A stretch of DNA of 64,000 nt from Naegleria gruberi (Eukaryota). The position numbers and the translations under genes were made by a program. The stretch's first letter is position 1. Each line of letters begins with the position of its first letter. This document shows positions 2,522 to 61,771 of this stretch, piece after piece. The notes below the pieces were generated by a model. That model ran no database searches and was not told the DNA's origin. It saw only the letters and a program-made list of their open reading frames with translations. The stretch lies in assembly GCA_000004985.1 (NCBI GenBank), contig GG738924.1; one strand, given 5' to 3'.

Positions 2522-5500
2522 NNNNNNNNNNNNNNNNNNNNNNNNNNNNNNNNNNNNNNNNNNNNNNNNNNNNNNNNNNNNNNNNNNNNNNNNNNNNNNN
2601 NNNNNNNNNNNNNNNNNNNNNNNNNNNNNNNNNNNNNNNNNNNNNNNNNNNNNNNNNNNNNNNNNNNNNNNNNNNNNNNNNNNNNNNNNNNNNNNNNNNN
2701 NNNNNNNNNNNNNNNNNNNNNNNNNNNNNNNNNNNNNNNNNNNNNNNNNNNNNNNNNNNNNNNNNNNNNNNNNNNNNNNNNNNNNNNNNNNNNNNNNNNN
2801 NNNNNNNNNNNNNNNNNNNNNNNNNNNNNNNNNNNNNNNNNNNNNNNNNNNNNNNNNNNNNNNNNNNNNNNNNNNNNNNNNNNNNNNNNNNNNNNNNNNN
2901 NNNNNNNNNNNNNNNNNNNNNNNNNNNNNNNNNNNNNNNNNNNNNNNNNNNNNNNNNNNNNNNNNNNNNNNNNNNNNNNNNNNNNNNNNNNNNNNNNNNN
3001 NNNNNNNNNNNNNNNNNNNNNNNNNNNNNNNNNNNNNNNNNNNNNNNNNNNNNNNNNNNNNNNNNNNNNNNNNNNNNNNNNNNNNNNNNNNNNNNNNNNN
3101 NNNNNNNNNNNNNNNNNNNNNNNNNNNNNNNNNNNNNNNNNNNNNNNNNNNNNNNNNNNNNNNNNNNNNNNNNNNNNNNNNNNNNNNNNNNNNNNNNNNN
3201 NNNNNNNNNNNNNNNNNNNNNNNNNNNNNNNNNNNNNNNNNNNNNNNNNNNNNNNNNNNNNNNNNNNNNNNNNNNNNNNNNNNNNNNNNNNNNNNNNNNN
3301 NNNNNNNNNNNNNNNNNNNNNNNNNNNNNNNNNNNNNNNNNNNNNNNNNNNNNNNNNNNNNNNNNNNNNNNNNNNNNNNNNNNNNNNNNNNNNNNNNNNN
3401 NNNNNNNNNNNNNNNNNNNNNNNNNNNNNNNNNNNNNNNNNNNNNNNNNNNNNNNNNNNNNNNNNNNNNNNNNNNNNNNNNNNNNNNNNNNNNNNNNNNN
3501 NNNNNNNNNNNNNNNNNNNNNNNNNNNNNNNNNNNNNNNNNNNNNNNNNNNNNNNNNNNNNNNNNNNNNNNNNNNNNNNNNNNNNNNNNNNNNNNNNNNN
3601 NNNNNNNNNNNNNNNNNNNNNNNNNNNNNNNNNNNNNNNNNNNNNNNNNNNNNNNNNNNNNNNNNNNNNNNNNNNNNNNNNNNNNNNNNNNNNNNNNNNN
3701 NNNNNNNNNNNNNNNNNNNNNNNNNNNNNNNNNNNNNNNNNNNNNNNNNNNNNNNNNNNNNNNNNNNNNNNNNNNNNNNNNNNNNNNNNNNNNNNNNNNN
3801 NNNNNNNNNNNNNNNNNNNNNNNNNNNNNNNNNNNNNNNNNNNNNNNNNNNNNNNNNNNNNNNNNNNNNNNNNNNNNNNNNNNNNNNNNNNNNNNNNNNN
3901 NNNNNNNNNNNNNNNNNNNNNNNNNNNNNNNNNNNNNNNNNNNNNNNNNNNNNNNNNNNNNNNNNNNNNNNNNNNNNNNNNNNNNNNNNNNNNNNNNNNN
4001 NNNNNNNNNNNNNNNNNNNNNNNNNNNNNNNNNNNNNNNNNNNNNNNNNNNNNNNNNNNNNNNNNNNNNNNNNNNNNNNNNNNNNNNNNNNNNNNNNNNN
4101 NNNNNNNNNNNNNNNNNNNNNNNNNNNNNNNNNNNNNNNNNNNNNNNNNNNNNNNNNNNNNNNNNNNNNNNNNNNNNNNNNNNNNNNNNNNNNNNNNNNN
4201 NNNNNNNNNNNNNNNNNNNNNNNNNNNNNNNNNNNNNNNNNNNNNNNNNNNNNNNNNNNNNNNNNNNNNNNNNNNNNNNNNNNNNNNNNNNNNNNNNNNN
4301 NNNNNNNNNNNNNNNNNNNNNNNNNNNNNNNNNNNNNNNNNNNNNNNNNNNNNNNNNNNNNNNNNNNNNNNNNNNNNNNNNNNNNNNNNNNNNNNNNNNN
4401 NNNNNNNNNNNNNNNNNNNNNNNNNNNNNNNNNNNNNNNNNNNNNNNNNNNNNNNNNNNNNNNNNNNNNNNNNNNNNNNNNNNNNNNNNNNNNNNNNNNN
4501 NNNNNNNNNNNNNNNNNNNNNNNNNNNNNNNNNNNNNNNNNNNNNNNNNNNNNNNNNNNNNNNNNNNNNNNNNNNNNNNNNNNNNNNNNNNNNNNNNNNN
4601 NNNNNNNNNNNNNNNNNNNNNNNNNNNNNNNNNNNNNNNNNNNNNNNNNNNNNNNNNNNNNNNNNNNNNNNNNNNNNNNNNNNNNNNNNNNNNNNNNNNN
4701 NNNNNNNNNNNNNNNNNNNNNNNNNNNNNNNNNNNNNNNNNNNNNNNNNNNNNNNNNNNNNNNNNNNNNNNNNNNNNNNNNNNNNNNNNNNNNNNNNNNN
4801 NNNNNNNNNNNNNNNNNNNNNNNNNNNNNNNNNNNNNNNNNNNNNNNNNNNNNNNNNNNNNNNNNNNNNNNNNNNNNNNNNNNNNNNNNNNNNNNNNNNN
4901 NNNNNNNNNNNNNNNNNNNNNNNNNNNNNNNNNNNNNNNNNNNNNNNNNNNNNNNNNNNNNNNNNNNNNNNNNNNNNNNNNNNNNNNNNNNNNNNNNNNN
5001 NNNNNNNNNNNNNNNNNNNNNNNNNNNNNNNNNNNNNNNNNNNNNNNNNNNNNNNNNNNNNNNNNNNNNNNNNNNNNNNNNNNNNNNNNNNNNNNNNNNN
5101 NNNNNNNNNNNNNNNNNNNNNNNNNNNNNNNNNNNNNNNNNNNNNNNNNNNNNNNNNNNNNNNNNNNNNNNNNNNNNNNNNNNNNNNNNNNNNNNNNNNN
5201 NNNNNNNNNNNNNNNNNNNNNNNNNNNNNNNNNNNNNNNNNNNNNNNNNNNNNNNNNNNNNNNNNNNNNNNNNNNNNNNNNNNNNNNNNNNNNNNNNNNN
5301 NNNNNNNNNNNNNNNNNNNNNNNNNNNNNNNNNNNNNNNNNNNNNNNNNNNNNNNNNNNNNNNNNNNNNNNNNNNNNNNNNNNNNNNNNNNNNNNNNNNN
5401 NNNNNNNNNNNNNNNNNNNNNNNNNNNNNNNNNNNNNNNNNNNNNNNNNNNNNNNNNNNNNNNNNNNNNNNNNNNNNNNNNNNNNNNNNNNNNNNNNNNN

Positions 5501-7413
5501 NNNNNNNNNNNNNNNNNNNNNNNNNNNNNNNNNNNNNNNNNNNNNNNNNNNNNNNNNNNNNNNNNNNNNNNNNNNNNNNNNNNNNNNNNNNNNNNNNNNN
5601 NNNNNNNNNNNNNNNNNNNNNNNNNNNNNNNNNNNNNNNNNNNNNNNNNNNNNNNNNNNNNNNNNNNNNNNNNNNNNNNNNNNNNNNNNNNNNNNNNNNN
5701 NNNNNNNNNNNNNNNNNNNNNNNNNNNNNNNNNNNNNNNNNNNNNNNNNNNNNNNNNNNNNNNNNNNNNNNNNNNNNNNNNNNNNNNNNNNNNNNNNNNN
5801 NNNNNNNNNNNNNNNNNNNNNNNNNNNNNNNNNNNNNNNNNNNNNNNNNNNNNNNNNNNNNNNNNNNNNNNNNNNNNNNNNNNNNNNNNNNNNNNNNNNN
5901 NNNNNNNNNNNNNNNNNNNNNNNNNNNNNNNNNNNNNNNNNNNNNNNNNNNNNNNNNNNNNNNNNNNNNNNNNNNNNNNNNNNNNNNNNNNNNNNNNNNN
6001 NNNNNNNNNNNNNNNNNNNNNNNNNNNNNNNNNNNNNNNNNNNNNNNNNNNNNNNNNNNNNNNNNNNNNNNNNNNNNNNNNNNNNNNNNNNNNNNNNNNN
6101 NNNNNNNNNNNNNNNNNNNNNNNNNNNNNNNNNNNNNNNNNNNNNNNNNNNNNNNNNNNNNNNNNNNNNNNNNNNNNNNNNNNNNNNNNNNNNNNNNNNN
6201 NNNNNNNNNNNNNNNNNNNNNNNNNNNNNNNNNNNNNNNNNNNNNNNNNNNNNNNNNNNNNNNNNNNNNNNNNNNNNNNNNNNNNNNNNNNNNNNNNNNN
6301 NNNNNNNNNNNNNNNNNNNNNNNNNNNNNNNNNNNNNNNNNNNNNNNNNNNNNNNNNNNNNNNNNNNNNNNNNNNNNNNNNNNNNNNNNNNNNNNNNNNN
6401 NNNNNNNNNNNNNNNNNNNNNNNNNNNNNNNNNNNNNNNNNNNNNNNNNNNNNNNNNNNNNNNNNNNNNNNNNNNNNNNNNNNNNNNNNNNNNNNNNNNN
6501 NNNNNNNNNNNNNNNNNNNNNNNNNNNNNNNNNNNNNNNNNNNNNNNNNNNNNNNNNNNNNNNNNNNNNNNNNNNNNNNNNNNNNNNNNNNNNNNNNNNN
6601 NNNNNNNNNNNNNNNNNNNNNNNNNNNNNNNNNNNNNNNNNNNNNNNNNNNNNNNNNNNNNNNNNNNNNNNNNNNNNNNNNNNNNNNNNNNNNNNNNNNN
6701 NNNNNNNNNNNNNNNNNNNNNNNNNNNNNNNNNNNNNNNNNNNNNNNNNNNNNNNNNNNNNNNNNNNNNNNNNNNNNNNNNNNNNNNNNNNNNNNNNNNN
6801 NNNNNNNNNNNNNNNNNNNNNNNNNNNNNNNNNNNNNNNNNNNNNNNNNNNNNNNNNNNNNNNNNNNNNNNNNNNNNNNNNNNNNNNNNNNNNNNNNNNN
6901 NNNNNNNNNNNNNNNNNNNNNNNNNNNNNNNNNNNNNNNNNNNNNNNNNNNNNNNNNNNNNNNNNNNNNNNNNNNNNNNNNNNNNNNNNNNNNNNNNNNN
7001 NNNNNNNNNNNNNNNNNNNNNNNNNNNNNNNNNNNNNNNNNNNNNNNNNNNNNNNNNNNNNNNNNNNNNNNNNNNNNNNNNNNNNNNNNNNNNNNNNNNN
7101 NNNNNNNNNNNNNNNNNNNNNNNNNNNNNNNNNNNNNNNNNNNNNNNNNNNNNNNNNNNNNNNNNNNNNNNNNNNNNNNNNNNNNNNNNNNNNNNNNNNN
7201 NNNNNNNNNNNNNNNNNNNNNNNNNNNNNNNNNNNNNNNNNNNNNNNNNNNNNNNNNNNNNNNNNNNNNNNNNNNNNNNNNNNNNNNNNNNNNNNNNNNN
7301 NNNNNNNNNNNNNNNNNNNNNNNNNNNNNNNNNNNNNNNNNNNNNNNNNNNNNNNNNNNNNNNNNNNNNNNNNNNNNNNNNNNNNNNNNNNNNNNNNNNN
7401 NNNNNNNNNNNNN
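2522..7413. other. assembly gap (N run, about 4.9 kb)
   Basis: Uninterrupted n characters. Confidence 0.99.
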
Positions 7414-7955
7414 CTTACTCACCAAGTTATTCATGCGAGATGGTGATCCAGCTCCACTTCCAGGTGAAGCACCATGTCCACCACCACCAACAGGTGATGA
7501 TGCATTAGCTCCATAACTTGATCTCTTATCTGGCGTGTTGATTGGTGAGCTAGGAAGTGGTGAATCCTGAGTTGTGCTTGTGGATTTCTTTGGTGTGGAG
7601 GTGCTATTCGTTGATTTTGCAATCTGAATGATATAGTCACATTGTGAAAACTCTTCCTGACTAATCTGTCCTCCCTCGATGCATCTCTCGCAAACTAATC
7701 TTACATTCTTGAGAATGTCTTGAACAATGGATCCCACCAGACGTGTTGGATTGTAATATTTGGAAAATGTCATTCCGTGAATTTGTTTTAACAAGGTTGT
7801 TTTGCCACTATCACCTAAGTTTCGAATAATAATTTTGTTAATCTATTTGGCTTGCATTACAACATACCTGAACCAAATAAAAGTATTTTAGCTTGATCTT
7901 GCTCTAGCATTTCGTCTAGATCGACTTCAGAACGATCACCTGTGGAGCGAAGCAT
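7414..7955 (-). CDS. G-alpha-like GTPase paralog A, 5' end: exon 1 7867-7955, 51-nt intron 7816-7866 (GTATGT..TTAG), exon 2 7414-7815 running into the gap.
   Basis: The reverse strand translates to MLRSTGDRSEVDLDEMLEQDQAKILLFGS|GDSGKTTLLKQIHGMTFSKYYNP..., i.e. P-loop GSGDSGKTT. The helical-domain start resembles G-alpha (VKQMKIIH..GYS), followed by an S/T/P/G-rich insert. The intron splits the Gly codon. Confidence 0.6.
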
Positions 7956-9118
7956 CTCTTTTTTTTGTTAGTAAATCACCCCTATAAAGGTTTAGTCCAA
8001 CTCGCATGAATAACATTTATTTTCGTTCCTCCATTGGGAAAATAGTGCCGATTTTGACATTGACCAACTTTCTAAATAAGGACTGCTTATAAAATTGTGG
8101 TTAGAAATCCATGGTTGTTAAGGTTTAGCTATTTTTCATTCGAAACTCATGGTTTCTCATTAAGAGTATTATATGGTTGCAAGTACGGAGAAAAGAAACC
8201 TTTAACATTCATGCGAAGAGCATTGGCCAATAAATATTTACACTATTTTAGCCAGTTGCATTCTGTTTGACTTTAGAATAAAATAGAGAATTTTCCAAAC
8301 GAAACTTGTAAGAACTCTGACTTTTAGTTCACAAGCTGATTTTCAATAAAAAACTGGAAAATTGACTTGAAATTTGACTAGTTCCTTAGAAATTCAAAGA
8401 AACTTGTTGAATCTGTGTGAAAATTCAAAATTTACCTGCAACTATCAAAATTTTGGTTGAGTTTTTAATACAACCATCCCATAGACACAATACAACCGAT
8501 AAATATTGTATTAAATGTGCAGAAGAATTGATGGCATTGTTGATCAATGTTGCCATTTTCGGATTGATCACTTTTAGAATATTTGTAAACTTTGATTATG
8601 ATTCTGTGTGTGAGGATATTGATGTGATTGATTGGAATATATTCCATATTATTTAATCGTGTGAGGAAATTGTCTTTCTTAAAGATTTTGCTCAATATAT
8701 CAATATTGTTTGAAAAGTTGTTAAGGGGAGCATATCTATTATATGCAGTAAGGAATGGCTTGGTCAAAACTTAAAATACCGACCATGGTAATAAACCATG
8801 AATGTTAGCCACAACCGTATGGTTATGTGTGGTTTTACCAGTGGGCATTAAGGTATGGAGAGATTTAAGCAGATGAACTTTTTACAAAAACAGCCCTGTA
8901 ATTAATATTCAAAATATCCATAAATGGGAGATTCGAAATTTTACAATTAAATTCAACATGCTTAAAAAAAATGTCCTCACATGTTCAAAACCTCTGTGCC
9001 TTACTAGTTTCTGTTATGGTTGTAGTAGCCTTGATGGAAAATCTTCAACATGTTAAGGCAGGTGATGCTTCACTAGCTTTAACCAAAATTTATAATACTG
9101 CATCATGTTCATCCGATG

Positions 9119-10080
9119 CTAATATCGTTCACTATAGATATCATGTGACGNNNNNNNNNNNNNNNNNNNNNNNNNNNNNNNNNNNNNNNNNNNNNNNNNN
9201 CATTTCCTCAACAGTTCTAAACTATCAACAAGTTCATTCTTTTCTGGATTTTCTTTTGATTTCTTATTAAACGAACTTAAATTGACTAAATATACACATA
9301 ATGTAATGTTGTGGAAGTAACCTTTCCATTTCTTTCGGCAATTTCCACCAAAATCTAATACAGAAATACAGTTAGGATATTGTTTGAGGAATTTCTCATC
9401 CATAGCTAGTTGTTGGAGTTTTGGAAATCCTTCTGTTTCACTATAGTACACTTTTCTTGTATCGACTCCTTTAGTTTCCATTCGAATACGAAGAGAATCT
9501 TCAAAATTTGGAATATTCGAAGCCTTACACAATCGATCCAACGTTGAAGAATTGAAGAAATATTCACACGAATCACTCACATTCAATTCATCCCTATACT
9601 TGTCAAAAGTTTCTTTGAAAACTAAACAATTCGTCCATAAATCAATGATCATTTCTGCCGTTTTTGGAACAAGCAAAGCTGGTGAAGATTTTGATGGAAA
9701 TGAATTCAAAGTTTTCGAATTGGTTGGTGACTGTTCCAAGTCTTTCTTGGGAGCTGATTCAATCAGTGTTTTGCAATACGAAAGGTATTGCTGATGTAAA
9801 CGAGACGAAATGGATTGAGTATTGACACACTTTTCGCAAACCTTTCGAATATTGTTTAAAATATCGTTATGAATGTATTGCATTGCAATTTGTTTTGCAT
9901 TTCCAAGTATTCTATTCATGAGCGTTGTCTTTCCACAATCATCTGAACTTTCGTTTATTGTATACGAATGTACAAGAACTTACTTGATCCCAACAAGAGA
10001 ATTTTAGGGTTCTCACTATCTAACACTGGATCTTCATCATCAAATTCAACGCCTGATAGAGCCAATGTATTCTTGAGCAT
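9119..10080 (-). CDS. G-alpha-like GTPase paralog B: exon 1 9984-10080, 41-nt intron 9943-9983 (GTAAGT..TTCAG), exon 2 from 9942 downward across N gap 9151-9200; 3' end unresolved.
   Basis: MLKNTLALSGVEFDDEDPVLDSENPKILLLGS|NDCGKTTLMNRILG.... The helical domain IIDLWTNCLVFKETFDKYRDELNVSDSCEYFFNSSTLDRL and switch I RIRMETKG match G-alpha. Switch II DVGGQ is replaced by DFGGNCRKKWKGYFHNITLCVYLVNLSSFN. Confidence 0.6.
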
Positions 10081-11119: not shown

Positions 11120-11782
11120 ATGAGTGATAACAAAAGATCAACTATTCACGCTCACGGAGGATCTTCATCTTCATCAAATGTTGCTTCTTCCGATCTAAAA
11201 ATTCTAAATTACAATGTCAATTTCGTCTATGCCACCAAATCCAAATTAGAATCAAATGCATTATTTGTATTTCATGCACTCTTCCGATCGGAGGCTGATG
11301 TAATTTGTCTACAGGAGACACATGCTGGATACGAAAGTGCTTTTAAACAAATTAAATGGAAGGACGTTAGAAATTTGGATCAAAATTTAAATGGAAATTT
11401 AGATGAAAAATTCAAGGAGGAACAATCATTGATTTCACTCTATCCACATTATGTTTTTTATAATCATGGTGCAGCTGGAGGGATGGCCTTTCTGAGCAAG
11501 TATGAATTTTTGGAAAATTCTCAAATAACTCTTGCGACAAATGCCAAGGATCAATATGGAAAGAAAGTTGTGGATGGGAGTTGGTTTCCAATGCATTTGA
11601 TAACAGTAAAGGTACCTGAGAAGACAACAGGAAATGTGAAACAAGTACTGTTGGTAAATGTACATTTGAGACCTCCTTTGAATGATGATGGATCTGCAAG
11701 TTTGTGGACAGCTCGAATGACAAATGTCTATCGCTTGAATGAAATCAAATATCTATACAATTATTTAGAGGGAATTGGAATT
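11120..11782 (+). CDS. endonuclease/exonuclease/phosphatase (EEP) fold protein, N-terminal 221 aa, running into the gap
   Basis: KILNYNVNF...ADVICLQETH matches EEP motifs I/II, with an N-terminal Ser-rich extension. Whether this is a cellular gene or a retroelement endonuclease is unresolved. Confidence 0.5.
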
Positions 11783-22415: not shown

Positions 22416-23945
22416 ATGAGCAACACTGGTTTGTCCTTCAAGTTAGCAACTGCTAACTTTGCAGGTACTGGATGGGTAAAGCAATCCCAAATGCTTTCAT
22501 TTATTGAAGACCAGTCAATACATGTACTTAATGTACAAGAAACCCATCTACCAAGCTCGGCCCTTAGTGAACACTATTGGCAAAACAAACACTTCAGATC
22601 CTTCTTTTACCCTTCCCTTGTCTTTACCTCCAACGCACCAGAGACTGACAAAGGAGCAGGCGTTGCTACAATTGTAAAACCATCCCCACTCACGAAAGTT
22701 CTTACTTTCATCGAGCATGTTGTTGGCAGAATCACTGAGCTCATTTTAGAGCATAAACAGTTGGGAGTCCTCAGAATATTTAATTGGTACGGACCTGCAA
22801 ATGACTATAACATCAACAGACAACAATTTATGATTAACACTATCAATATCCTTACACCTATCATCCAATCCTCAGTGCTTCACAATGAGAGAGTGATTAT
22901 ATTAGGTGATCTGAATGCCACAACCACAACCTACACCAAGACTTATCATGGGCCACATGAGAAACAACTTGCAGAGTTTTGCAATTCCCTTAGGCTCTTC
23001 GATATAGCACCAGCTATCAATCGCCCCTCACACCAACAACGTAACAAACAGTCACAAGGTTTCTCAAGACCGGACCATATTATATCTACACATGCTGACC
23101 ATGTAGACTGTGAGGACATTGATACACCTCATGCCCACAAATTGCTCACCATCTCATACACCTTAGCTAACAACTTTGACTTCCCAGAGAAGTTTAACAA
23201 GGTGTCTATACCAGCTACTGTCTTGTCTAGAGATTCCAAAGCCATCAATGCTACCTTTTTAACCAAAAGTCCCAAAACACTTAAAGAGGTCCAAAAAGTA
23301 TTACAAGATATCACAGTACAATATGGAAAAGTGGTTAATGATAAACCAAAGCTCATCACAAACAACAAACGAATAATCCAACTCCAAAAGTATATCTTTG
23401 AAATCAAACAACTATCTCGACACAAAAGAGTATCCAATATAACAGCTCAATTCTTAGAAGGCAACTTTAGCTCCAACAATGTAGAACTAAAACTCAAGCT
23501 AGCCAAACAAGAGCTTAACTCTTTGATTGGTACTTTATTGGCAAATAGAAAGAAAGTTTTTATGGAAAGAGTGAATAATCTTAGTTCCAAATACCCCTAT
23601 TCCTATGCATTCAGAAAGGAACTATCATGCTCTTCTATTCTTGGCATTGTCAAACACAACCACAACAAAACCATCTCTAAACACTTCGAAGACATGAGCA
23701 ATACAACACAAAAAGTCACCAAAGCCCTCCCTGACATTAACAAAAACAGGAAACTCAAGTCATGGAGACTCACTCATATCTCAGTTAAAGATTTAGGAAA
23801 AACCATCAAGAAGACTAAAAACTCCATGGCTGGCTATGACAACATCTCAGTGCCCCTTATTAAAGTGTTTCTTAAAAGAAAACCAACAATAAATAAACTA
23901 ATGGATATAAAGCTCACACTACAACTTCTACCTATTCTTAGGTAG
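22416..23945 (+). CDS. retroelement ORF2: AP-endonuclease domain plus truncated RT N-terminus (509 aa)
   Basis: EEP motifs LNVQETH, GDLNA, SDH; RT motif 0 near the C-terminus. Confidence 0.6.
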   Translation: MSNTGLSFKLATANFAGTGWVKQSQMLSFIEDQSIHVLNVQETHLPSSALSEHYWQNKHFRSFFYPSLVFTSNAPETDKGAGVATIVKPSPLTKVLTFIEHVVGRITELILEHKQLGVLRIFNWYGPANDYNINRQQFMINTINILTPIIQSSVLHNERVIILGDLNATTTTYTKTYHGPHEKQLAEFCNSLRLFDIAPAINRPSHQQRNKQSQGFSRPDHIISTHADHVDCEDIDTPHAHKLLTISYTLANNFDFPEKFNKVSIPATVLSRDSKAINATFLTKSPKTLKEVQKVLQDITVQYGKVVNDKPKLITNNKRIIQLQKYIFEIKQLSRHKRVSNITAQFLEGNFSSNNVELKLKLAKQELNSLIGTLLANRKKVFMERVNNLSSKYPYSYAFRKELSCSSILGIVKHNHNKTISKHFEDMSNTTQKVTKALPDINKNRKLKSWRLTHISVKDLGKTIKKTKNSMAGYDNISVPLIKVFLKRKPTINKLMDIKLTLQLLPILR

Positions 23946-25643: not shown

Positions 25644-27926
25644 CTAATGGATATTGTCCCGAGAAAGGAGAGTAGTAGACAAGTGGCGAGCTGCAAGAGC
25701 TTCTTGTCTTTGATAAGGTTGTAAAGATTTCACATCCTTATGTCTAGTCCCCATAATAATATCCTGAGTAGGAATTCCCTTGATAATACTCTCAGTAGTT
25801 GCACCAATACGTAAACTGTGACCAGAAACAGTGATTTCTGAATCAACAGAGAACATAGCATTCTTGATAAGTTGAGAAACATCTTCAGTGTTGAAGAAAA
25901 TATTGTCCTGCAATGAAAACAATGGTGAATCTGCTTTTTTGAAATGCTGTACAGTGTTCATGTAATCAAAAAGCAATTTCACTGGACACACTGAAGGATT
26001 TTCAAGATGCTTGTCAATAGTAATCGGCTTTTCTAGTAGAAAGAAATCTGTTTTGTGACCACTGAGATCTAATTTGATGTTACCATTTCTAAGCTTTGTA
26101 ACATAACCCCACTTGAGTCTAGCTAATTCACCTGGTCTAGCGAAAAGTCTGAAACCAATGACTAACATGGCACTAGTGAGTTTGAAAATGAAAGGATCAT
26201 AATGATCTTTTCTCTGAATGAAACCTTCAATATGATGATAGAAAATTGGATCACGTTTCAAAGCTTTTCTATCAATCAAGGACCAAATAAGAGTAATTCC
26301 TCTTTTAATCTTATCATAAGACCATGAAATTGGAAAAACTCTTCTCTCAATATTGGCCCAAAATTGAAGGGATGGTCTCAAGGCTTCAACACGAGATGTT
26401 TGACCTTGAATTGTAAGATAAGCTGCATAATACTCAATAGCATAAGGGTCATCCATTGAAATATTGAATGCAGTAATAAACCATAAGAAACCATTATAGT
26501 TTCTAGTGTAAAGTTTGAAGGTTTCTTCCTTAATCGAAACCAACATCCCTAAATCTCTGGTTTGAAGTATAAGTTTCCATCCAGATGAGCAATTATGAAC
26601 GTCGTTCCTTCGAATTTGATCCATAATTCGGATAATAGTTTGATTAAAAGCATCCTTCTTGTGATACTTTTTCTCTTCTTTAATAGCTTTAAGAGTAGAG
26701 GCCACCAAATCGAGGAGCTCCATTCTGGAATTACAAATGTCGCTATTGATCTGGATTTGATAAGATGAATGAGAGCTTGACTGATCAATCCTATTGGAGG
26801 AACACAATAACTCACTAGTTCTTTTTCCCAAAGACTTTTGAACGCGTCGTTCTCTTTCCATGAATTGAATACAAGGGTAGTTGCCGAACTCGTTGTTGCA
26901 AATCTGTCCACATGGTGTATTCCAAATTCTTGGTTGACTAATTCGATTAGTTCCTTGGTGGATCCCCAATCCATCAATCGACTCAACCTGTCTGCTAGGA
27001 AATTCTGTTTGGATGGGATGTAAATCACTTTGCAAATCCACCAATTTCTTCTCATTAGAATCTTTGAGATGTCTCTTGCTATCTTTGCGAGATCGTCTTT
27101 TGATCCATAACCCTTCTTTAGATATGCCACGGCTACCATGTTGTCTACTCTCAATTCGAAATTTGTGAAATCTGGATAAAGATTTAATTCGTCTGCTTGT
27201 TTGAAATAAAGCAGTAAGGCTCTTAGTTCCTTGACATTGATGTGCTCTTCTCCATTGAACTTTCCAACAGTAACGATTGAACCTGAGTGAATGCCGAAAC
27301 CTTGAGGTGTTGCATCTGAATTCACAATCACTGGGAGAATCCAATCCAATTCGAACGGATGACCATCGTTCTTTTGAATTAACTCCCTTAGAATCAATAA
27401 ATCCTTGAATGCGCCTTTGTGAATTTGCATTGATGCGTGCCAACCTCTTCCTGATACTACTGAAACCATGTTCTTTCGAAGACGACACATGAATGGTGAA
27501 AGGTACTTGTTGGCAATTGTTAGAAATTCCAACTTTCCTAGGAACTTGGCAACTCTCTTGCATGGAACATAAAGCCGTTTCTGGGAAGCATTGAGTAGCT
27601 CCTCTATGAATTCTAAAGCTGTAATCCTTTTGTCTTCTGGAATTTTTACCAAACCTTGATGAAAGTCTAACAAAACTCCTAGGTATTCTATTAATTGAGT
27701 TGGATTTAAACAACATTTGTCTTTTTGAATGAGGAATCCAAACTCTTCTAAATCCTTTAGAACTATATCTCTGTCTAAGATCAACTGATCTTTTGAATGA
27801 TTTACCACTAAGATATCGTCTAAATAAATGAATACCGAGATTCCTCTTACTCTCCATCTTTGAACTAAGACCTTCATTATCTTGGAGAATAATCTTGGAG
27901 CAATGTTCAGACCGAATGGTAGGCAC
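25644..27926 (-). CDS. DIRS-like tyrosine recombinase ORF (760 aa), overlapping the RT ORF in another frame
   Basis: C-terminal catalytic region ...ARPGELARLKWGY...GHSLRIGATT...TRHKDVKSLQPY (R..HxLR..Y), as in DIRS-1 ORF2. Confidence 0.7.
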   Translation of the reverse strand: MPTIRSEHCSKIILQDNEGLSSKMESKRNLGIHLFRRYLSGKSFKRSVDLRQRYSSKGFRRVWIPHSKRQMLFKSNSINRIPRSFVRLSSRFGKNSRRQKDYSFRIHRGATQCFPETALCSMQESCQVPRKVGISNNCQQVPFTIHVSSSKEHGFSSIRKRLARINANSQRRIQGFIDSKGVNSKERWSSVRIGLDSPSDCEFRCNTSRFRHSLRFNRYCWKVQWRRAHQCQGTKSLTALFQTSRRIKSLSRFHKFRIESRQHGSRGISKEGLWIKRRSRKDSKRHLKDSNEKKLVDLQSDLHPIQTEFPSRQVESIDGLGIHQGTNRISQPRIWNTPCGQICNNEFGNYPCIQFMERERRVQKSLGKRTSELLCSSNRIDQSSSHSSYQIQINSDICNSRMELLDLVASTLKAIKEEKKYHKKDAFNQTIIRIMDQIRRNDVHNCSSGWKLILQTRDLGMLVSIKEETFKLYTRNYNGFLWFITAFNISMDDPYAIEYYAAYLTIQGQTSRVEALRPSLQFWANIERRVFPISWSYDKIKRGITLIWSLIDRKALKRDPIFYHHIEGFIQRKDHYDPFIFKLTSAMLVIGFRLFARPGELARLKWGYVTKLRNGNIKLDLSGHKTDFFLLEKPITIDKHLENPSVCPVKLLFDYMNTVQHFKKADSPLFSLQDNIFFNTEDVSQLIKNAMFSVDSEITVSGHSLRIGATTESIIKGIPTQDIIMGTRHKDVKSLQPYQRQEALAARHLSTTLLSRDNIH

Positions 27927-28704
27927 TTGTAATGGTAAATCTGGCCGTTGTACCTGAATCCCAATAACTTTCGATCTGTTTCCTTCACTGGAACGTGATG
28001 ATAACCTTTCATCAAATCTATTTTGATTCCTAACATGTCTTTTGATAGAAACTTTGAGTTTTGTGAATATGATCCATTTTGAATGAGTCGTTGTTTATAC
28101 CAGCATTTATGGATCTCAAATCTAGGATTAGACGAAACTGGTCTTTGCCTTTCTTCGGAACCACGTGAATCGGATTTATGACAGTGTCCTTGTTTCCAAT
28201 TTCTATAATATTGGTTTTGAGTAAATCTGAGATTTCGCTCTTTAACCATGAATCTTCCTTTTCTGAAAAATGAGATCTTAGTGGAATATCGATCCATTTT
28301 TCTTTTTCTGAATGGATTGGAATACCCTCTCTTATCCATTCTGCAACAGTTTTGGGGAAGATTTGCCACTTTTTCCAAAACTGTTGTAATCTTCCTCCTT
28401 GGAAGGAGGGAGTGGAAGAGTCATTCTGACTTATCCTTATCTTTTCCTTGGAATTTACCACCGTTTCCTTGACCCTTATTGTTTTTCTTTTGAAACGGTT
28501 TCTTCTTAGAATACTTCTTGGTAATTCCCTTTGGACCTTGTTGCTGCTTGGTTGCTTTGTAGTAATGATATGTTGTTCTAATATTATGAAGTTCACTTTC
28601 GGCAGCAGTTTCGAAACTATTAGTAGAAATGTATCTGTTAAGGAATTCTCTACCAACATCGAAAGTGGAAACTTGTAAACCTTCTTTAAGGAAGAGGGCT
28701 TCAA
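26549..28704 (-). pseudogene. DIRS-like RT/RNase H(/methyltransferase-like) ORF split by a frameshift into 28030-28704 (224 aa) and 26549-28378 (609 aa)
   Basis: The RT N-terminal block ...IIEIGNKDTVINPIHVVPKKGKDQFRLILDLRSINAGINNDSFKMD is in one frame; ...IDLMKGYHHVPVKETDRKLLGFRYNGQIYHYKCLPFGL...FIYLDDILVV continues in another. Copy 2 has the same region in a single frame. Confidence 0.65.
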
Positions 28705-29548
28705 CTTTGCAAATCATTCTACAAAGTTCTGTAATCTCTGTCATGACTGTAAAATCAAGTGGAGAATTCAATGCATATTCCAACAATTCAATTTTGATTT
28801 GAGTTAACTCTACTAGTTTAGAATAACCAATACTGTTAATCTCATCCAATCTAATGTCTGGGGCAAACTTGGAAATCACATCCTTGTATTTAAGGAGCAA
28901 ATATTGAATTCTTCTCTTGGTCTCCTCTTGTTTACGGTCTTTAAGTATCTCGGAGGATACTGCAGAAAGTAATAAATCATCTCCAATAGATGAAGGAACA
29001 TTGTAAGAACTTCTAAGGTCTCTATAAGTTTGACGTAACCAAACTTCTGGAGATATAGCTTCTGGATTAACAAAATCATCATCTGATTCTTCTTCTCTCT
29101 CCTGAACTTTCTTAGTAAGTTCAGAGATATTTCCTGTTACGGTTCTCAAAACTCCAATCATTTCTTGCATTTGGGCTTTGATCGCCATGATATCATGTTC
29201 AGATGAACTACTGGTAAAACTATCTCTACCTGAATTGGAAGAAGACGAATTGTTTGACGAAGAGGGTGCAGTTGAAGAACTATCCAACAATGTTGAATTG
29301 CTTAGCAACGAACTGGAAACAACAGTTGAAATACCATCATATAAGGCACTGTTAGATGATGAAACTGAAGTAGATTGTTTGCGCTTATTTCTATTAGCTA
29401 CAGGTGACATGGCCTTTAACTTTCTAAGCTTCTTAGCAGCTTGTTGTTTTCTTGCTTTCACTGGTGTTGTGGGGTATTCTACTTCAACTGCTGGGAGATC
29501 TTCATCAGATGAAGAGGAGTCAATATCTTGAGGCTTCTTAGCGACCAT
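28421..29548 (-). CDS. DIRS-like ORF1 (gag-like, 375 aa)
   Basis: MVAKKPQDIDSSSSDEDLP.... The C-terminal LLEYALNSPLDFTVMTEITEL block is shared with ORF1 of copies 2 and 3. Confidence 0.65.
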   Translation of the reverse strand: MVAKKPQDIDSSSSDEDLPAVEVEYPTTPVKARKQQAAKKLRKLKAMSPVANRNKRKQSTSVSSSNSALYDGISTVVSSSLLSNSTLLDSSSTAPSSSNNSSSSNSGRDSFTSSSSEHDIMAIKAQMQEMIGVLRTVTGNISELTKKVQEREEESDDDFVNPEAISPEVWLRQTYRDLRSSYNVPSSIGDDLLLSAVSSEILKDRKQEETKRRIQYLLLKYKDVISKFAPDIRLDEINSIGYSKLVELTQIKIELLEYALNSPLDFTVMTEITELCRMICKVEALFLKEGLQVSTFDVGREFLNRYISTNSFETAAESELHNIRTTYHYYKATKQQQGPKGITKKYSKKKPFQKKNNKGQGNGGKFQGKDKDKSE

Positions 29549-30691: not shown

Positions 30692-32358
30692 CTAATGCAG
30701 ATAACCATCCTCACTATCATCACTCTCTCTATCGTCACTCTTGACATCGTCATCGATAACACGCGTCGGGATAACAACCTCCTCTGTATCATACTCCTCT
30801 GTGTCATACTCCTCTGTGTCACCCTCCTCTGTGTCATCCTCGGTCCTGATGCTACACAAACCGCATCGAATCAATTTACGGAGGTGTTTTTTTCCAGCGG
30901 TTTCGATTTCATTATCATCTAAACTGAGATATGTGATATTCTTCAGTTTAGAGAGGCATTCTGCCCCTGTATCTCCGATTCCATTATTATCTAAACTGAG
31001 GTGTGTCAGCTTATTCAATTCAGAGAGGTATTTCGCTCCATCATCTCCAATTCTGTTGTCATTCAAACCGAGGCGAGTGAGTTTCTTCAATTTAGATAGA
31101 TGTTGTGCTCCATCCTCGATTCCATTGCCATTCAAATCGAGATGAGTGAGATTGGTCAATTCAGAGAGGCTTTGTGCTCCAATAGACCCAATTTGATTGC
31201 CACTCAAATCGAGTTGAGTGAGTTTCTTCAATTTAGATAGGCGTTGTGCTCCATCATCCTCGATTCGATTGTAACCCAAATCGAGTTGAGTGAGATTCTC
31301 CAATTTACAGAGGCTTTCTGCTTTAATAGCTCCAATTAGATTACTCCTCAAATTGAGTTGGGTGAGATTGGTCAATTCACAGAGTCTTTCCGCTCCGTTG
31401 GGTCCAATTTGATTGAGACATAAATTGATTTGAGTGAGGTTCTTCAATTGAGAGAGGTGTTCTGCTCCTTTACCATTTGATTAATACTTAGATCGAGTTC
31501 AGTAAGATTCTCCAACCCACAGAGTCTTTCAGCTCCATCACCCGTGATTCGATTATTGCCCAAATTGAGTTTTTTGAGATTCTTCAATTCGGAGAGGTTG
31601 TTTACACCCTCATACCCAATTTGATTGCCACTCAAATCGAGTTCTGTGAGCTTCTTCAATCCACGGAGGCTTTTCACTCCGTTAGCCCCCAATTTAGTGA
31701 TTCTCAAATTGAGTTGAGTGAGATTGGTCAATGAGGAAATGTGTTCAGCACCAGCATCACCGATTTCATTGTTGCCCAAATTGAGTTGGGTGAGATTGGT
31801 CAATGAGGAGAGGCGCTGTGCTCCATTGGGCCCAATTCCATTGTCGAACAAATCGAGTGCTGTGAGATGGGTCAATGAGGAAACATGTTTTGCTCCATCA
31901 TTTCCGATTTCATTGTGTCCCAAATTGAGTTTTTTGAGATTGGTCAATGAAGAGAGGCCCTTCACCACGGTGGGTTTAATTTTGTTACGACACAAATCGA
32001 GTTGTGTGAGATTGACCAATTTGGTGGAAATGGTACCACATTGCTCTTCAATAAGTTCGACTCCATCGATTGTTAGAGAAAGCACCTTATCCATTTCCAA
32101 ATTGGACCGCTCTATAAAGTCTGTCCATTTTTCGAATAAAGTAAAAGAGGGGTGGAGAGCGAGTCTCCCTCTCGTTACTTGGTTCCAATTACTGCACACA
32201 TACGCGCATTGAGAAAAGTGCTCTTTAGTCGAGAGAAAGGAAAATATATCCAACAAATTTTCGTCAGGAAGGGAATTGATCCCAACACTACCAGAGCCGC
32301 GACTCGCTTTGGCACTACTCTCGGCTTTGCAGGATTTGTCGTCAGGGGGAGTTGTCAT
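30692..32358 (-). CDS. F-box / leucine-rich-repeat (RNI-like) protein, apparently disrupted by a -1 frameshift near 31445-31470 (annotated as ORFs 31444-32358 and 30692-31447)
   Basis: F-box LPDENLLDIFSFLSTKEHFSQCAYV. About 20 LRRs of the type LTxLxLxxNxIGxxGAxxL span both ORFs. Restoring one base (ATGGT to ATTGGT) reads ...LSINQIGKGAEHLSQLKNLTQINLCLNQIG. Acidic tail EDDTEEGDTEEYDTEEYDTEE. Confidence 0.6.
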
Positions 32359-34231: not shown

Positions 34232-34641
34232 TTGGCAGCTATTGTAGTAGTTCAAACACCAAGCAAAGCGAATATCTCCAACATTCGTCAAAGAGTTTCA
34301 GCAAGCAAATCTTCAACTTCTACCTACAAGTCAGGTTACATCCCAGTAACTGACAATGGTAGCTCAGCTTCACTCCCCTCTGTGGTTGACCCAACAAGCA
34401 AAACCTTGGATAACAATCAAGCTGGTTCTGAAAAGAACCTTGATGCTATTTTCAACGCCATCACTTCTTTGGGTGAGAGAATAAAGCATCTCGAAGCTGT
34501 TCCTCCTGTTCTGCAACAAGCTAATCAACTTGATGAAGACCCTGATGAGGAATCCGCTGATGAGGATTTCACTGGTAAACATTGGGGTCTAACTACTATC
34601 AAGGAGATTAGACGTAACTACGAAGTTGGTGATAGACTATC

Positions 34642-36064
34642 TGTTATAGGCGATAAAAACTCGCACGAAGACCCAGGCAGTTAAATTCGTTGGTATGAAC
34701 CTTCCAGGCGAAAAATACTTCTAGGATAGATTCCATTAAAATTATCCATCCCTAAAAGTCTGCTATATCAGGGATGGAATTAGGCCTTGCACAAATAGAA
34801 TCCAATTAGACAACACTTATCTGTTAAGGTAGGAATTATCATTAATATGATAAGTCTCATTAAACAAGCTCTATTAGCATGAATTTAGAGCCATTATGTG
34901 TAATATCTTGTTTTATGAACCTATTCAATATCTACTAGGATTTTATGAATTATCAAGTATTAAAGAAGTATATTTAATTGGTAAATAATCACAGATTAGT
35001 TTTTAAAAATTTAAAATCTCCAATTCAATGAATTTAACACAATAAATTAATGTGTGATACAAAAGTACAATGAAATTTATTATTTTGATGTTTTGACATG
35101 GTGAACATCTGGTTAGGCTGAGAACTTGCATGTTTAGAGAGAAATTTAAGATCTTTATGATCTCATCGAAATAAAACGAAATATTTGATATGGTACATCT
35201 ACAATAATACTAATAACAGTTTATTAATGTTTCAAGAAGTTTGGCTATGTACTTTTGGCATGAATCATGATATGTTATCATGAATATTCCGAAGTTGGTA
35301 AAACAACAAAATGATGAAAAACTGATAATAAATATATTGTTTATTATGTATTTGAATAGTAGTTATGAAAGACATTTTCAAAGTTGGTGAAGTACATGTT
35401 GAGTTATGGTCCATGTACATGTTGAAAATATACATGAACCTATCATCATGATAACCAATAGGAAAATGTTCGGAAGTGATTTTACCTGATGGAATCGACC
35501 ATGCTGAACAATACTAGATGAAAGTTTTCCAAATTACCATATGAATCTGGCAGTGATGATGATTTTAGTGAAAATATTGAATTTCACTAAAATATTACTA
35601 TTATCAGATTTATTTCCACAAATATTACTATTATAATGATGATAAATAACAATGATGATGGTTGGAAGTTGTTCCGATGATGGTTTACCAACTTGAATTT
35701 TTCCCAAGTGAAAATTAAATTCCAAATTTATAATCACAATCCAATAATAAAAAATACTACCAGTAATACTATTAGGATGATGTTGAGATGATGATGTGAA
35801 AGTTTGGTGGATTCATGGGGTGAAATCACTCTGAAAATCACCAAAGTGTTCCCAATGTGTGTTTGGGCTGAAATATTTTTTCTTAATGGTGGAAAATAAT
35901 GGAACGTGTATTTGTTCGGTGTTATTAATACATACAAGGCAACACCAAGAACTTTTGTCCATCAAATAAGCACCTTACTATTTTCGCATAGACATTTTAG
36001 GCTATTTTTTTTGGCCTATATATTTTTTGCCTGTTTTTCAGGCGAAAAAAGTAGCCTAGAACAT
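34642..36064. mobile_element. ~1.42-kb non-autonomous TIR (DNA-transposon-like) insertion inside ORF1 of DIRS copy 2
   Basis: The empty site is seen in copy 3 (GATAGACTATC|CGATGG). The insert ends are TGTTATAGGC...GCCTAGAACA (10-bp TIR, one mismatch), flanked by duplicated ATC/TATC. Interior is AT-rich with no ORF over 70 aa. Confidence 0.55.
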
Positions 36065-36567
36065 ATCCGATGGAGATGTCTTAAGTTTTGTCTCAGCCAA
36101 AACACTTCGTCATTACTCTTCCAATGAGGCGTTGTTGAGTAGAGTTCAAGTTTTGATGGCTCGATTTGAATCTGTCATTCACAACTCTCGTAACTATCCT
36201 CGTCTGCAAGAAATTCAATCCAAAGGCTTGCAAAAGATGATGGAAATGTTACATTTGAAGTCTAAATTACTTCAGTTTGCTCTGAGCCATCCATTAAATG
36301 TAACCAACATCATTGAAATCACTGAGTTGGTGTTTCTCCTCTCTGAGGTTGAGAAAATCTTTTTAGAAGAAGGTTTGTTCGAAAGTAACTTTGATGTTGC
36401 GAACCAATTTATTCAACCCTTCATCCAAAGCAACACGTTTGCTGATATAACAGAAAAAGCTCGTCAAAAGAAGAGAGAGAAGTCTATAGTAAAACATGCC
36501 ATCACCAGCAAGATCCAAAAACCTCTAAAGATGAAAGAAAAGTTTCAAAAACCGTCCTCTCATCAAG

Positions 36568-38553: not shown

Positions 38554-38688
38554 GGGATCTTAGTATCCTTTCATCAATAGCTGAGAAAACATTCAGAACT
38601 TATAATAGAATTTATGGTGGTTTTCTCTGGTTTATCAATGTGTTTGATCTCACCATTGATGATCCTATAGCTATTGAATATTGTTGAA

Positions 38689-44440: not shown

Positions 44441-45439
44441 ATGTGTTTGAACTTTACTATCCAACAAAAAAAAATGAAAACAAATCTAATCTTTTCAATT
44501 GCAATTCTACTTTTACTTGCAATCCTCTCAGTTCAAGCAAGTGACAGCTATCAAACTAAACCTCCAGTTGTTGACAAGTATCACAAGCCAAGAATTTGTA
44601 AGAGAAAATGTTTAAAGCACAAGTGGATTAAGAAGTGTTTGAAACACAAACTCGTCGGTCAAAAGAAGGTCTGTGATCAATATGCAATTGTCGGTGCTGG
44701 CAAATGTCTCAAACATAAGAAATATTCTAAATGTGACAAGTACAGTAAGGCAACAAAGAAGTGTGTCTTGCATGCATACAAGATTGTTGGATGTGCCAAG
44801 AAGAAGTATTGGAAAGTTTGTGATTCTTATGGAACTAAGAAGATTTGTATCAAGAAGGGTTACAAGAAATTCTGTGCCAAACACAAGATTATCAACAAGT
44901 GCGTCAAGAAGGGATATAAGAAGGTCTGTAAGAAATTCAAGAAGGTTCCAATCAAGAAGTGTGAAAAGAAGAAGATTTGCGACAAGTATACTGTTGATTC
45001 CTATAATAAGAAGGTTGCCAAATGTAGATATGTTAAAAAGTGCAAGATTGTTTCATGGGCAAAGAAATGCGCCAAGTATAAGAAGGTTAAATACTGTAAG
45101 GAGAGAAAATCCATTAAGAAGTGTTGTCTCATTAAGAAGAAATTCTTCTGTGCCAAACATAAGACTATCAAGTTCTGTAAACACAAGAAGACTATTTCCA
45201 AATGTGTGAAATATAACAAGAAGAAGTATTGTGCCAAGTCAATTGTCATTCCACCAAGATGTATCAAGAAGAAGTATTATAAGAAGTGTTTGAAACGTTC
45301 AAAGGGAAAGAAGATTTGTAAGAAATTCAAATTAGTTGGTGGAAAGAAAAAGTGTTGCAAGTCAATCAAGAAGAAGATTTGTATCAAGAGAAAGACATGC
45401 AAAAAGTCATCAAAGCCAATCGTTAAACCATCCTTGTAA
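44441..45439 (+). CDS. secreted lysine/cysteine-rich repeat protein (probable start at the second Met, 44474: MKTNLIFSIAILLLLAILSVQA signal peptide)
   Basis: After the signal peptide, about 300 aa are roughly 35% Lys and 13% Cys in about 25 degenerate units (K/C)KKxCxKxKK(I/V). No His/acidic residues, no TM segment. Confidence 0.6.
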   Translation: MCLNFTIQQKKMKTNLIFSIAILLLLAILSVQASDSYQTKPPVVDKYHKPRICKRKCLKHKWIKKCLKHKLVGQKKVCDQYAIVGAGKCLKHKKYSKCDKYSKATKKCVLHAYKIVGCAKKKYWKVCDSYGTKKICIKKGYKKFCAKHKIINKCVKKGYKKVCKKFKKVPIKKCEKKKICDKYTVDSYNKKVAKCRYVKKCKIVSWAKKCAKYKKVKYCKERKSIKKCCLIKKKFFCAKHKTIKFCKHKKTISKCVKYNKKKYCAKSIVIPPRCIKKKYYKKCLKRSKGKKICKKFKLVGGKKKCCKSIKKKICIKRKTCKKSSKPIVKPSL

Positions 45440-61661: not shown

Positions 61662-61771
61662 TTAGGTAAGGCCAAACGTGATGGGAAATTTGACACTCTG
61701 CCATAAATACATTTTTGGATGGGGATTAATATGGAACAATTACATAAGTAGCCAAGTTAAGAACTAGAATG

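Follow-up and report, generated by a model that had tools for sequence, protein, structure and literature searches.

Which kind of molecular switch is encoded by a pair of divergent genes for the alpha subunit of heterotrimeric G proteins (G-alpha), here called A and B, in Naegleria gruberi? The pair lies at positions 7,414 to 10,080 of a 64,000-nucleotide stretch of contig GG738924.1, and this whole stretch is referred to as the window. A typical G-alpha is acylated at its N-terminus and plugs its C-terminal helix into a receptor; within the heterotrimer, it is G-gamma that is prenylated. A previous report described a lineage-specific diversification of G-alphas in N. gruberi together with 229 RGS proteins (PMC3971589), and 13 G-alphas were described in N. 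fowleri (PMC9283941). An earlier reading of the window, made from its letters alone (the sequence-only reading), had proposed that A and B form a lineage-specific, possibly constitutively GTP-bound G-alpha subfamily.

In this study, we found with near certainty that A and B are N. gruberi members of the G-alpha family and sister paralogues of each other, annotated elsewhere in the assembly. The genes are already public and unnamed. What is new, as judged from the protein sequences, is a CaaX tail combined with unusual N-terminal features, and such a tail was seen in no other of 163 G-alpha sequences. We favour, with somewhat better than even confidence, the reading that A would be a cycling switch and B a GTP-locked one, and that both would be anchored in a Ras-like manner, probably without classical receptor coupling.

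Gene structure and complete copies of A and B

Both genes lie on the minus strand, and every feature that the sequence-only reading had described was recovered from the window sequence. The parts of the two genes and the gaps that interrupt them are as follows.

7868..7955, minus strand: exon 1 of A; ATG at 7955, 88 nt, ending ...KILLFGS; it reads MLRSTGDRSEVDLDEMLEQDQAKILLFGS plus the first base of the Gly30 codon and equals the N-terminus of EFC46448
7815..7867, minus strand: intron of A; 53 nt, GTATG...TTAG, phase 1, in the codon of the third P-loop residue (Gly42 of G-alpha-i1); the spliced product equals the annotated protein
7414..7814, minus strand: exon 2 of A; the remaining P-loop GDSGKTT, the start of the helical domain and an S/T/P/G-rich insert; ends at the 4,892-N gap
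2522..7413, gap of 4,892 N: conceals the 3' two thirds of A, with switch I SRQKTVG, beta2-beta3 insert, DTGGQ, NKMD, TALTD and the KKKCTIM tail, as known from EFC46448
9984..10080, minus strand: exon 1 of B; ATG at 10080, 97 nt, ending ...KILLLGS; it reads MLKNTLALSGVEFDDEDPVLDSENPKILLLGS plus the first base of the Asn33 codon and is kept in metagenome contig L001 and in EFC46447
9943..9983, minus strand: intron of B; 41 nt, GTAAGT...TTCAG, phase 1, at a position homologous to the intron of A; 1 of 41 nt differs from L001, with the splice sites retained
9201..9942, minus strand: exon 2 of B; the remaining P-loop NDCGKTT, helical domain, switch I, beta2-beta3 insert and DFGGN; ends at the 50-N gap
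9490..9467, minus strand: switch I of B, RIRMETKG
~9374-9439, minus strand: beta2-beta3 insert of B
9355..9341, minus strand: switch II motif of B, DFGGN
9151..9200, gap of 50 N standing for ~917 nt: conceals the 3' third of B, with NKVE, the G5 region FVSLLN, helix alpha5 and the KKKNCLIM tail; bridged by L001, with the same C-terminus in EFC46447

The third P-loop codon is split by both introns and reads G/GT (Gly) in A and A/AT (Asn) in B. The spliced reading is ...KILLFGSGDSGKTTLL... for A and ...KILLLGSNDCGKTTLM... for B, which gives the P-loops GSGDSGKTT and GSNDCGKTT, respectively. These splice models equal the Joint Genome Institute (JGI)/NCBI gene models EFC46448 and EFC46447. The short first exon ending in KILL(F/L)GS and the P-loop pattern GS(G/N)D(S/C)GKTT that had been read for both genes are thus present, the latter after splicing and, for B, in agreement with the independent L001 copy. 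The intron in the same P-loop codon was also borne out, with phase 1 in both genes; the proposed length of 41-51 nt holds for B (41 nt) and not for A (53 nt). Likewise, RIRMETKG and DFGGN in place of DVGGQ were both read in B, and the ~20 extra residues proposed between its switches I and II were counted as ~21. The S/T/P/G-rich insert in the helical domain of A, at ~7417-7614 just before the gap, is disordered in the AlphaFold2 model (residues 101-162, predicted local distance difference test score (pLDDT) <50).

Both 3' halves had been regarded as lost in N gaps. The gaps are real, and the full sequences are public as uncharacterised EFC46448 and EFC46447. A homology search with the B fragment yielded L001 (3,889 bp), a contig from a related strain that encodes a 97%-identical B protein. 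L001 matches the window flanks of the 50-N gap with 97.8% and 92.0% identity, and its B gene has the exon 1, intron and junction of the window copy, with 1 intron substitution. When the L001 B protein was used as the query of a HMMER search against 1.84 billion representatives, the second match was a 442-aa protein whose first 163 residues are identical to spliced A. A is therefore EFC46448.1 (XP_002679192.1, NAEGRDRAFT_65415, D2V9E7; 442 aa), and B is EFC46447.1 (XP_002679191.1, NAEGRDRAFT_65413, D2V9E5; 396 aa). Gap closure, which had been suggested as a check, was in this way achieved for B by L001 (~917 nt) and for both full proteins by the gene models.

The two database entries are each named "predicted protein" and are located on another scaffold, of 782,252 bp. 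Window A is identical to EFC46448 over 163 aa, and a single residue (L111 versus M) separates window B from EFC46447. Several other open reading frames (ORFs) of the window are exact N. gruberi NEG-M (Heterolobosea) proteins of a 196,593-bp scaffold, among them V-ATPase subunit a (EFC36897), folylpolyglutamate synthase (EFC36896), a YIPF protein, histone H3 and EFC36888. An origin of the window from a dictyostelid was rejected on these exact matches. Since complete and near-identical copies of A and B are present on the 782,252-bp scaffold, the window holds a gap-broken second copy, which is either an alternative haplotype (allele) or a recent duplication. No G-alpha ORF was found in 1560-2521, on the far side of the large gap, where the 3' end of A was looked for. 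Upstream of B, positions 1-1197 of L001 did not align with the window beyond 10241; L001 has a tRNA-Asn gene (416-489) and another ORF there. At ~160 bp upstream of the B start, either synteny with L001 breaks or the window copy lies in a different context.

A draft assembly with large gaps and one clear contig-edge error might suggest that faulty base-calling, assembly or splice modelling produced the unusual motifs. The error is found at B's gap edge, where the window reads LELLRK in place of the correct LELFEEM; compared with L001 and EFC46447, the last ~14 nt (9201-9215, minus strand) contain an indel and also a substitution, which account for it. The P-loop, DFGGN, intron and junction, on the other hand, recur in the independent metagenome assembly and in the gene models of the other scaffold, and no alternative splicing of A or B gave an open frame with a Walker A motif. 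An artefact was rejected on this agreement between L001 and the other scaffold, and we give it a vanishingly small probability.

A and B are G-alphas and apparently form an isolated pair

Full-length A and B matched the Pfam G-alpha family (PF00503) with 230.1 and 199.7 bits, respectively, at a gathering cut-off of 48.8. With the window fragments, B reached 134.4 bits and A 38.5 bits, the latter under the cut-off. A sequence search of the PDB with B gave 293 matches at E<=0.001, and the best 60 of the 293 were all G-alpha. The closest was Selaginella GPA1 (8VGA, E=4.5e-19), followed by N. fowleri G-alpha7 (6NE6, E=4.2e-17). AlphaFold2 models, for which a 13-sequence alignment was the input, had a pLDDT of 78.9 and a predicted template-modelling score of 0.80 for B, and 73.5 and 0.72 for A. 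In both models, strands and helices follow one another as expected for the family, and a Ras-like GTPase domain carries an all-helical domain between G1 and switch I. In a Foldseek comparison of the B model with the PDB, the best 50 matches were all full G-alpha chains (target-normalised template-modelling score ~0.75-0.84), and the G-alpha-i1 G42V structures 1AS0 and 1AS2 were among the matches.

A different GTPase family (Arf, Roc or Ras) was also considered and was rejected, as its weak, partial P-loop and switch matches in Pfam were <=34 bits versus 200-230 bits for G-alpha. The sequence-only reading, which had named a better homology outside G-alpha as one outcome that would overturn it, was therefore right in taking both as G-alpha genes.

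We then compared the pair with its nearest relatives. In the HMMER search, B matched A with 160 bits and 35% identity, and the next representative with 103 bits. Overall, the identity of A and B is about 31-36%. A tree had been proposed as a further check, and a neighbour-joining tree of 113 single-domain G-alphas, computed with capped distances, grouped A with B in 49 of 50 bootstraps, both terminal branches being longer than the median. A word-indexed search with full-length A returned only distant G-alphas, from Anaeramoeba and others, at <=104 bits. The same type of search with the A fragment gave no match and also missed the annotated A protein itself. No relative was confirmed in JGI metagenome contigs scanned with the A and B alignment and then with A alone.

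A and B have several derived traits in common: the phase-1 intron in one codon, the P-loop pattern GS(G/N)D(S/C)GKTT, Leu at the Ala326 position, short acidic N-termini and the C-terminal tail. Both also carry a 21-residue insert in the beta2-beta3 hairpin with a conserved GFPK...KQ(F/Y)P. These results suggest that A and B are apparently an isolated, lineage-specific pair. The subfamily that had been proposed thus stands as a sister pair, and its GTPase-deficient character is limited to B, because A has DTGGQ and NKMD.

Catalytic and nucleotide-binding residues of A and B

The P-loops of the pair had been set against GAGESGKST as a near-invariant G-alpha sequence. We counted 109 P-loops among the nearest 148 G-alpha representatives, a sample biased towards B-like sequences, and found the exact GAGESGKST in only 24 of them, so it can hardly be called near-invariant. 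Asp replaced Glu in 26, Thr replaced the Mg-binding Ser in 13, and the exact GSGDSGKTT was present in 2; GSGDSGKTT was also found in named chytrid G-alphas (Polyrhizophydium, Batrachochytrium salamandrivorans). Because the same substitutions recur in this census, we regard A's P-loop, in which the Walker A pattern is preserved, as an ordinary variant. Both P-loops depart from the canonical sequence as had been read, mildly and recurrently in A and unusually in B, which has Asn at Gly42.

Residues were mapped in G-alpha-i1 numbering, and the motif positions of the reference sequence were checked. The Gly42 column is Gly in 89 of the 101 other sequences with a residue there and Ala, Ser or Pro in the remainder; Asn is found in B alone. 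Gln204, which is Q in 103 of 111 other G-alphas, is kept in A (DTGGQ, Q274) and absent in B (DFGGN). The switch II of B is two residues shorter and also lacks Glu207, and HMMER placed the gap both ways (DFGG--NCRKKW or DFGGN--CRKKW). The loss of the catalytic Gln in B, as first read from the window, was therefore confirmed. Asp272 of the NKxD motif is D in all 111 other G-alphas and in A (NKMD), and B alone has Glu (NKVE). Ala326 in G5, which is A in 96 of 109 others, is Leu in both A and B. The G5 region of A reads TALTD, and that of B reads FVSLLN versus FTCATD, with Ser, Leu, Leu and Asn for Cys, Ala, Thr and Asp.

Other residues are retained in both proteins: Lys46, a hydroxyl at position 47 (Thr for Ser), Arg178, Thr181, Asp200, Gly203, Asn269 and Lys270. 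The Arg finger and the Mg-binding Thr that align with Arg178 and Thr181 are R228 and T231 in A and R186 and T189 in B. The full-length sequences had been expected to undo the reading if they showed canonical GAGESGKST and DVGGQ. They show a canonical switch II in A, and they uphold both variant P-loops and the DFGGN of B.

Substitutions such as G42V, Q204L and those at Ras G12 and Q61 cripple hydrolysis and the action of GTPase-activating proteins (GAPs). Changes at Ala326 or Ala366 speed up the release of GDP, and G-alpha-z is slow through P-loop changes. A slow GTPase resulting from a P-loop variant was also reported for N. fowleri G-alpha1, whose P-loop has TAQ (PMC9283941). As Gln, NKxD, Arg and Thr are intact in A, we infer that A is a working GTPase switch. 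B is likely to be deficient in hydrolysis, as predicted from the change of Gly42 to Asn, the lost Gln and a switch II that is two residues shorter. We think that B may still bind nucleotide and be GTP-locked, because all phosphate and Mg ligands are kept despite a divergence of about two thirds from A.

The same residues might instead make B a pseudoGTPase that does not bind guanine nucleotide and whose role would be that of a scaffold or decoy tethered to the membrane; it could, for instance, sequester RGS proteins, G-beta-gamma or partners of A. Of the sequences compared, B is the only one with Glu at the NKxD Asp (D in 111/111 others). Its G5 has Leu at Ala326 and, around it, Ser, Leu and Asn for Cys, Thr and Asp, and its shortened switch II is without Glu207. 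However, the change from Asp to Glu is conservative, and Leu at Ala326 is also found in A, which is otherwise canonical. B moreover keeps GxxxxGKT, the equivalents of Thr181 and Asp200, Gly203 and the Asn and Lys of NKxD, although it is only 31-36% identical to A. This retention of ligands despite divergence suggests selection for nucleotide binding. We consider a pseudoGTPase unlikely, while regarding it as the strongest competitor of the GTP-locked reading.

B, or the entire window copy, could also be a decaying, non-functional duplicate. B is hit at several near-invariant catalytic positions, the searches of representatives and of JGI metagenomes gave no orthologues in other species, and the window copy is fragmented and has an indel at its contig edge. 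This indel, however, lies within 14 nt of the end of a Sanger contig, a place at which sequencing errors are common. Neither EFC46447 nor the independent L001 shows damage to the 396-codon ORF, the two splice sites or the CaaX box, and the fold of B is confidently predicted by AlphaFold2. The window and L001 copies differ by 3 synonymous and 3 non-synonymous changes in 825 nt, and the resulting ratio of non-synonymous to synonymous change (pN/pS) of ~0.25 points weakly in the direction of constraint, although it rests on six differences and is not significant. Decay is thus very improbable in our estimation, and a B that is functional and hydrolysis-deficient remains the preferred reading.

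N-termini and putative farnesylation tails

A Met-Gly(-Cys) N-terminus followed by a basic amphipathic alpha-N helix is a frequent, not universal, feature of G-alphas. A starts with MLR and B with MLK, so that neither has a Met-Gly acylation site, whereas 75 of 101 comparable G-alphas start with MG. The same 101 sequences have a median of 39 residues before the P-loop and a median N-terminal net charge of +1. A and B have 27 and 30 residues and net charges of -4 and -5, respectively, and these are the two most acidic N-termini of the set. Both N-termini were modelled with low confidence by AlphaFold2.

At the other end, both proteins extend 10-12 residues past helix alpha5 and finish with a CaaX box, ...NDKKKCTIM in A and ...DKKKNCLIM in B. 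The B tail is also present in the strain-variant protein (P0001, from L001). Among 163 G-alpha sequences, a basic run followed by C-aliphatic-aliphatic-Met was found only in A and B, including the strain variant. Other sequences with Cys at -4 were the G-alpha-i-type CGLY (P0048) and CELF (P0072), and one CNRL. The tails are disordered in the AlphaFold2 models (pLDDT <50; residues 424-442 of A and 380-396 of B). The sequence-only reading missed them because they are encoded in the gaps.

The classical substrates of farnesyltransferase include CVIM, CIIM, CAIM and CTVM (in K-Ras4B, K-Ras4A, lamin B and Rnd3), and K-Ras4B uses a polybasic stretch ahead of the CaaX box as its second membrane signal. 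A Cys at -4 is no proof by itself, since the CGLF of G-alpha-i/o/t is not prenylated. The argument that the motif is used is its survival through ~65% divergence between A and B. On this basis, A and B may be farnesylated and anchored with the help of the basic run; we rate this putative modification as having an even chance or slightly more.

A and B could also be ordinary receptor-coupled heterotrimeric G-alphas, in which the odd residues are tolerated drift, the C-terminal Cys is unlipidated and the Ras-like anchor is a coincidence. The unprenylated G-alpha-i-type tails with Cys at -4 (P0048 and P0072) are precedents for this, P-loop variants such as GSGDSGKTT are found in other, presumably normal, G-alphas, and about a quarter of the sampled G-alphas are without MG. 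A coincidence accords less well with the fact that KKK and C-aliphatic-I-M were both kept after ~65% divergence, on a disordered extension of 10-12 residues. The N-termini of A and B fall in the shortest and most acidic class of the sample, the hairpin that carries their beta2-beta3 insert faces the receptor, and B is without Gln204 and Gly42, unlike any normally cycling G-alpha known. Ordinary receptor coupling of both proteins therefore appears quite improbable.

We also searched the literature for precedents. No report of a farnesylated or prenylated G-alpha, or of a G-alpha with CaaX in Naegleria, was found, and Anantharaman et al. 2011 may hold a prior remark. The locus tags and accessions of A and B are in no paper of the searched literature. 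In the report on the N. fowleri G-alphas, none of the lipid-anchor terms myristoyl, palmitoyl, prenyl, farnesyl and lipid occurs (PMC9283941).

Other features of the window and of the search hits

A and B had been described as same-strand tandem neighbours. They are on the same strand and near each other; they are not strictly adjacent, because a gene on the opposite strand starts between them.

8959..9150, plus strand: intervening gene, outside the pair; only its 5' end is in the window and its 3' end lies within the 50-N gap

In L001 this gene (2679-3320, minus strand) encodes a Cys-rich protein of 213 aa that starts with a signal peptide and ends in a hydrophobic tail similar to a glycosylphosphatidylinositol-anchor or transmembrane signal. 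It had no Pfam match.

Regulators of G proteins are also encoded in the window, by two tandem RGS-domain genes at 60109-63337 (minus strand), ~50 kb away from A and B. Copy 1 (61772-63337) encodes 521 aa with an RGS match of 38.7 bits. Copy 2 is read as two ORFs, 61077-61661 (RGS, 24 bits) and 60109-61068, which is like the C-terminal ~300 aa of copy 1.

Two DIRS-like retroelements were found at 25644-29548 (minus strand) and 34232-39978, with reverse transcriptase matches of 82-89 bits and weak matches to Dam-like methyltransferase and tyrosine recombinase. In the second element, one protein segment is present on both strands (36568... and 38574-39041), suggesting an inverted terminal duplication. 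Two ORFs of the endonuclease/exonuclease/phosphatase family are on the plus strand: one at 22416-23945, which resembles the endonuclease of retrotransposons without long terminal repeats, and one at 11120-11782, which is cut short by a 5,514-N gap. Also on the plus strand, 44441-45439 encodes a repetitive Lys- and Cys-rich protein of 332 aa with a signal peptide, KKC.. and CKKH-type repeats and no Pfam match, and 199-1509 contains at least 7 DUF4116 repeats (234.7 bits) and is broken by a 50-N gap at 1510-1559. On the minus strand, an F-box and LRR_6 repeats at 30692-32358 are split over two adjoining ORFs (31444-32358 and 30692-31447), for which an intron or a frameshift within a single gene is the probable explanation.

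Among the search hits, five proteins of fungal and other origin (P0015, P0018, P0027, P0028 and P0157; ~590-740 aa) contain two complete tandem G-alpha domains; the chytrids Polyrhizophydium and Batrachochytrium salamandrivorans are among their sources. The P-loop is of the form GSGDSGK(S/T)T or GSSDSGKST in some of these proteins, and DxGGQ is missing from some.

Discussion

The observations on A and B can be joined in one mechanism. A local duplication would have given rise to two sister G-alpha paralogues as part of the lineage-specific diversification of G-alphas in N. gruberi. A would be a cycling GTPase switch. B would hold its nucleotide without hydrolysing it and so be a permanently "on" or GAP-insensitive switch, like the small GTPases Rnd and RhoH. 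Both would be anchored in the membrane by a C-terminal farnesyl group and a polybasic patch as in K-Ras4B, in place of an N-terminal myristoyl or palmitoyl group.

The extreme C-terminus of alpha5 inserts into the activated receptor, and the lipid anchors and the binding of G-beta(-gamma) belong to the alpha-N helix. As both the alpha5 end and the N-terminal helix are altered in A and B, classical receptor coupling is probably not used. Some N. fowleri G-alphas were shown biochemically to be self-activating and RGS-controlled (PMC9283941). Receptor-independent action of A and B would fit this regime of self-activating G-alphas and RGS proteins. That they act independently of receptors and of G-beta-gamma altogether is a more speculative prediction from the sequences, to which we give somewhat less than an even chance. 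We are similarly tentative about the wider proposal that A and B may represent an undescribed G-alpha design, in which the N-terminal acyl and alpha-N module is swapped for a K-Ras-like C-terminal polybasic-farnesyl anchor, the end that normally enters the receptor thereby becoming the membrane anchor, to form a receptor-independent, Ras-style switch, with A cycling and B either GTP-locked or a pseudoGTPase.

Several points weigh against the reading of a cycling A and a GTP-locked B with Ras-like anchors. No orthologues were found beyond N. gruberi-like strains in the search of representatives, the search with full-length A and the scans of JGI metagenomes. The changes of Asp272 to Glu and Ala326 to Leu in B could abolish guanine binding instead of locking GTP. 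The CaaX tails lie outside the window sequence and are known from the gene models of the other scaffold and from L001, the polybasic run consists of three Lys only, and the Cys at -4 of G-alpha-i/o/t is unprenylated. The start codons of A and B are gene-model predictions. The bias of the census sample towards B-like sequences and the six differences behind the pN/pS ratio count on the same side.

The closest known system is the Naegleria G-alpha repertoire, of the same genus and protein family as A and B, with the lineage-specific diversification in N. gruberi (PMC3971589) and the G-alphas 1-13 of N. fowleri, which include the self-activating G-alpha5 and G-alpha7 (6NE6, the second-best PDB match of B). 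P-loop variation that slows the GTPase and an RGS-centred, receptor-poor signalling are documented in N. fowleri (PMC9283941). Compared with it, A and B are an isolated long-branch pair, and B, unlike the slow N. fowleri G-alpha1, is also without Gln204 and the NKxD Asp.

Among small GTPases, a parallel to B is seen in Rnd1-3/RhoE and RhoH, which are naturally GTPase-deficient and farnesylated. Rnd and RhoH are substituted at the equivalents of Gly12 and Gln61, as B is with Gly42 changed to Asn and Gln204 lost. The anchor of K-Ras4B is a polybasic stretch plus CVIM. This tail and the CTVM of Rnd3 are close to the Lys-rich tails of A and B with CTIM and CLIM, and the disordered linker resembles the hypervariable region. 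In contrast to the Ras/Rho family, A and B are G-alphas with a helical domain and an intrinsic Arg finger, their basic run is short, and their prenylation is putative.

Within the G-alpha family, B can be compared with mammalian G-alpha-z and the G42V and Q204L/Q227L mutants, in which changes at Gly42 or the switch II Gln slow or abolish hydrolysis. G-alpha-z, however, keeps the Gln, NKxD, N-terminal acylation and receptor coupling, whereas B naturally unites both lesions and adds changes in G4 and G5. Plant XLG1-3 are, like A and B, atypical G-alpha-like proteins, and they signal despite degenerate catalytic and nucleotide-binding residues. XLGs differ in their long N-terminal extension, nuclear localization signal, Cys-rich region and lack of a CaaX box. 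An XLG-like identity was rejected on architecture, as the N-termini of A and B are among the shortest of the sample and no extra Pfam domain is present.

The practical value of the pair is modest, since it is confined to N. gruberi-like strains as far as seen, its sequences are already deposited and its functions are predicted from sequence. Its value for the biology of the family may be larger. B would be a natural experiment, changed at Gly42 and Gln204, positions that are oncogenic when mutated in G-alpha, and carrying guanine-motif changes that are unique to it. The pair also bears on a debate raised by work on N. fowleri and Trichomonas, namely whether early eukaryotic G signalling was receptor-driven or self-activating and RGS-controlled. 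A clade of CaaX-tailed G-alphas without an acylation site, if true, would mean that evolution can put the G-alpha fold to another use, as a receptor-independent switch of the Ras kind.

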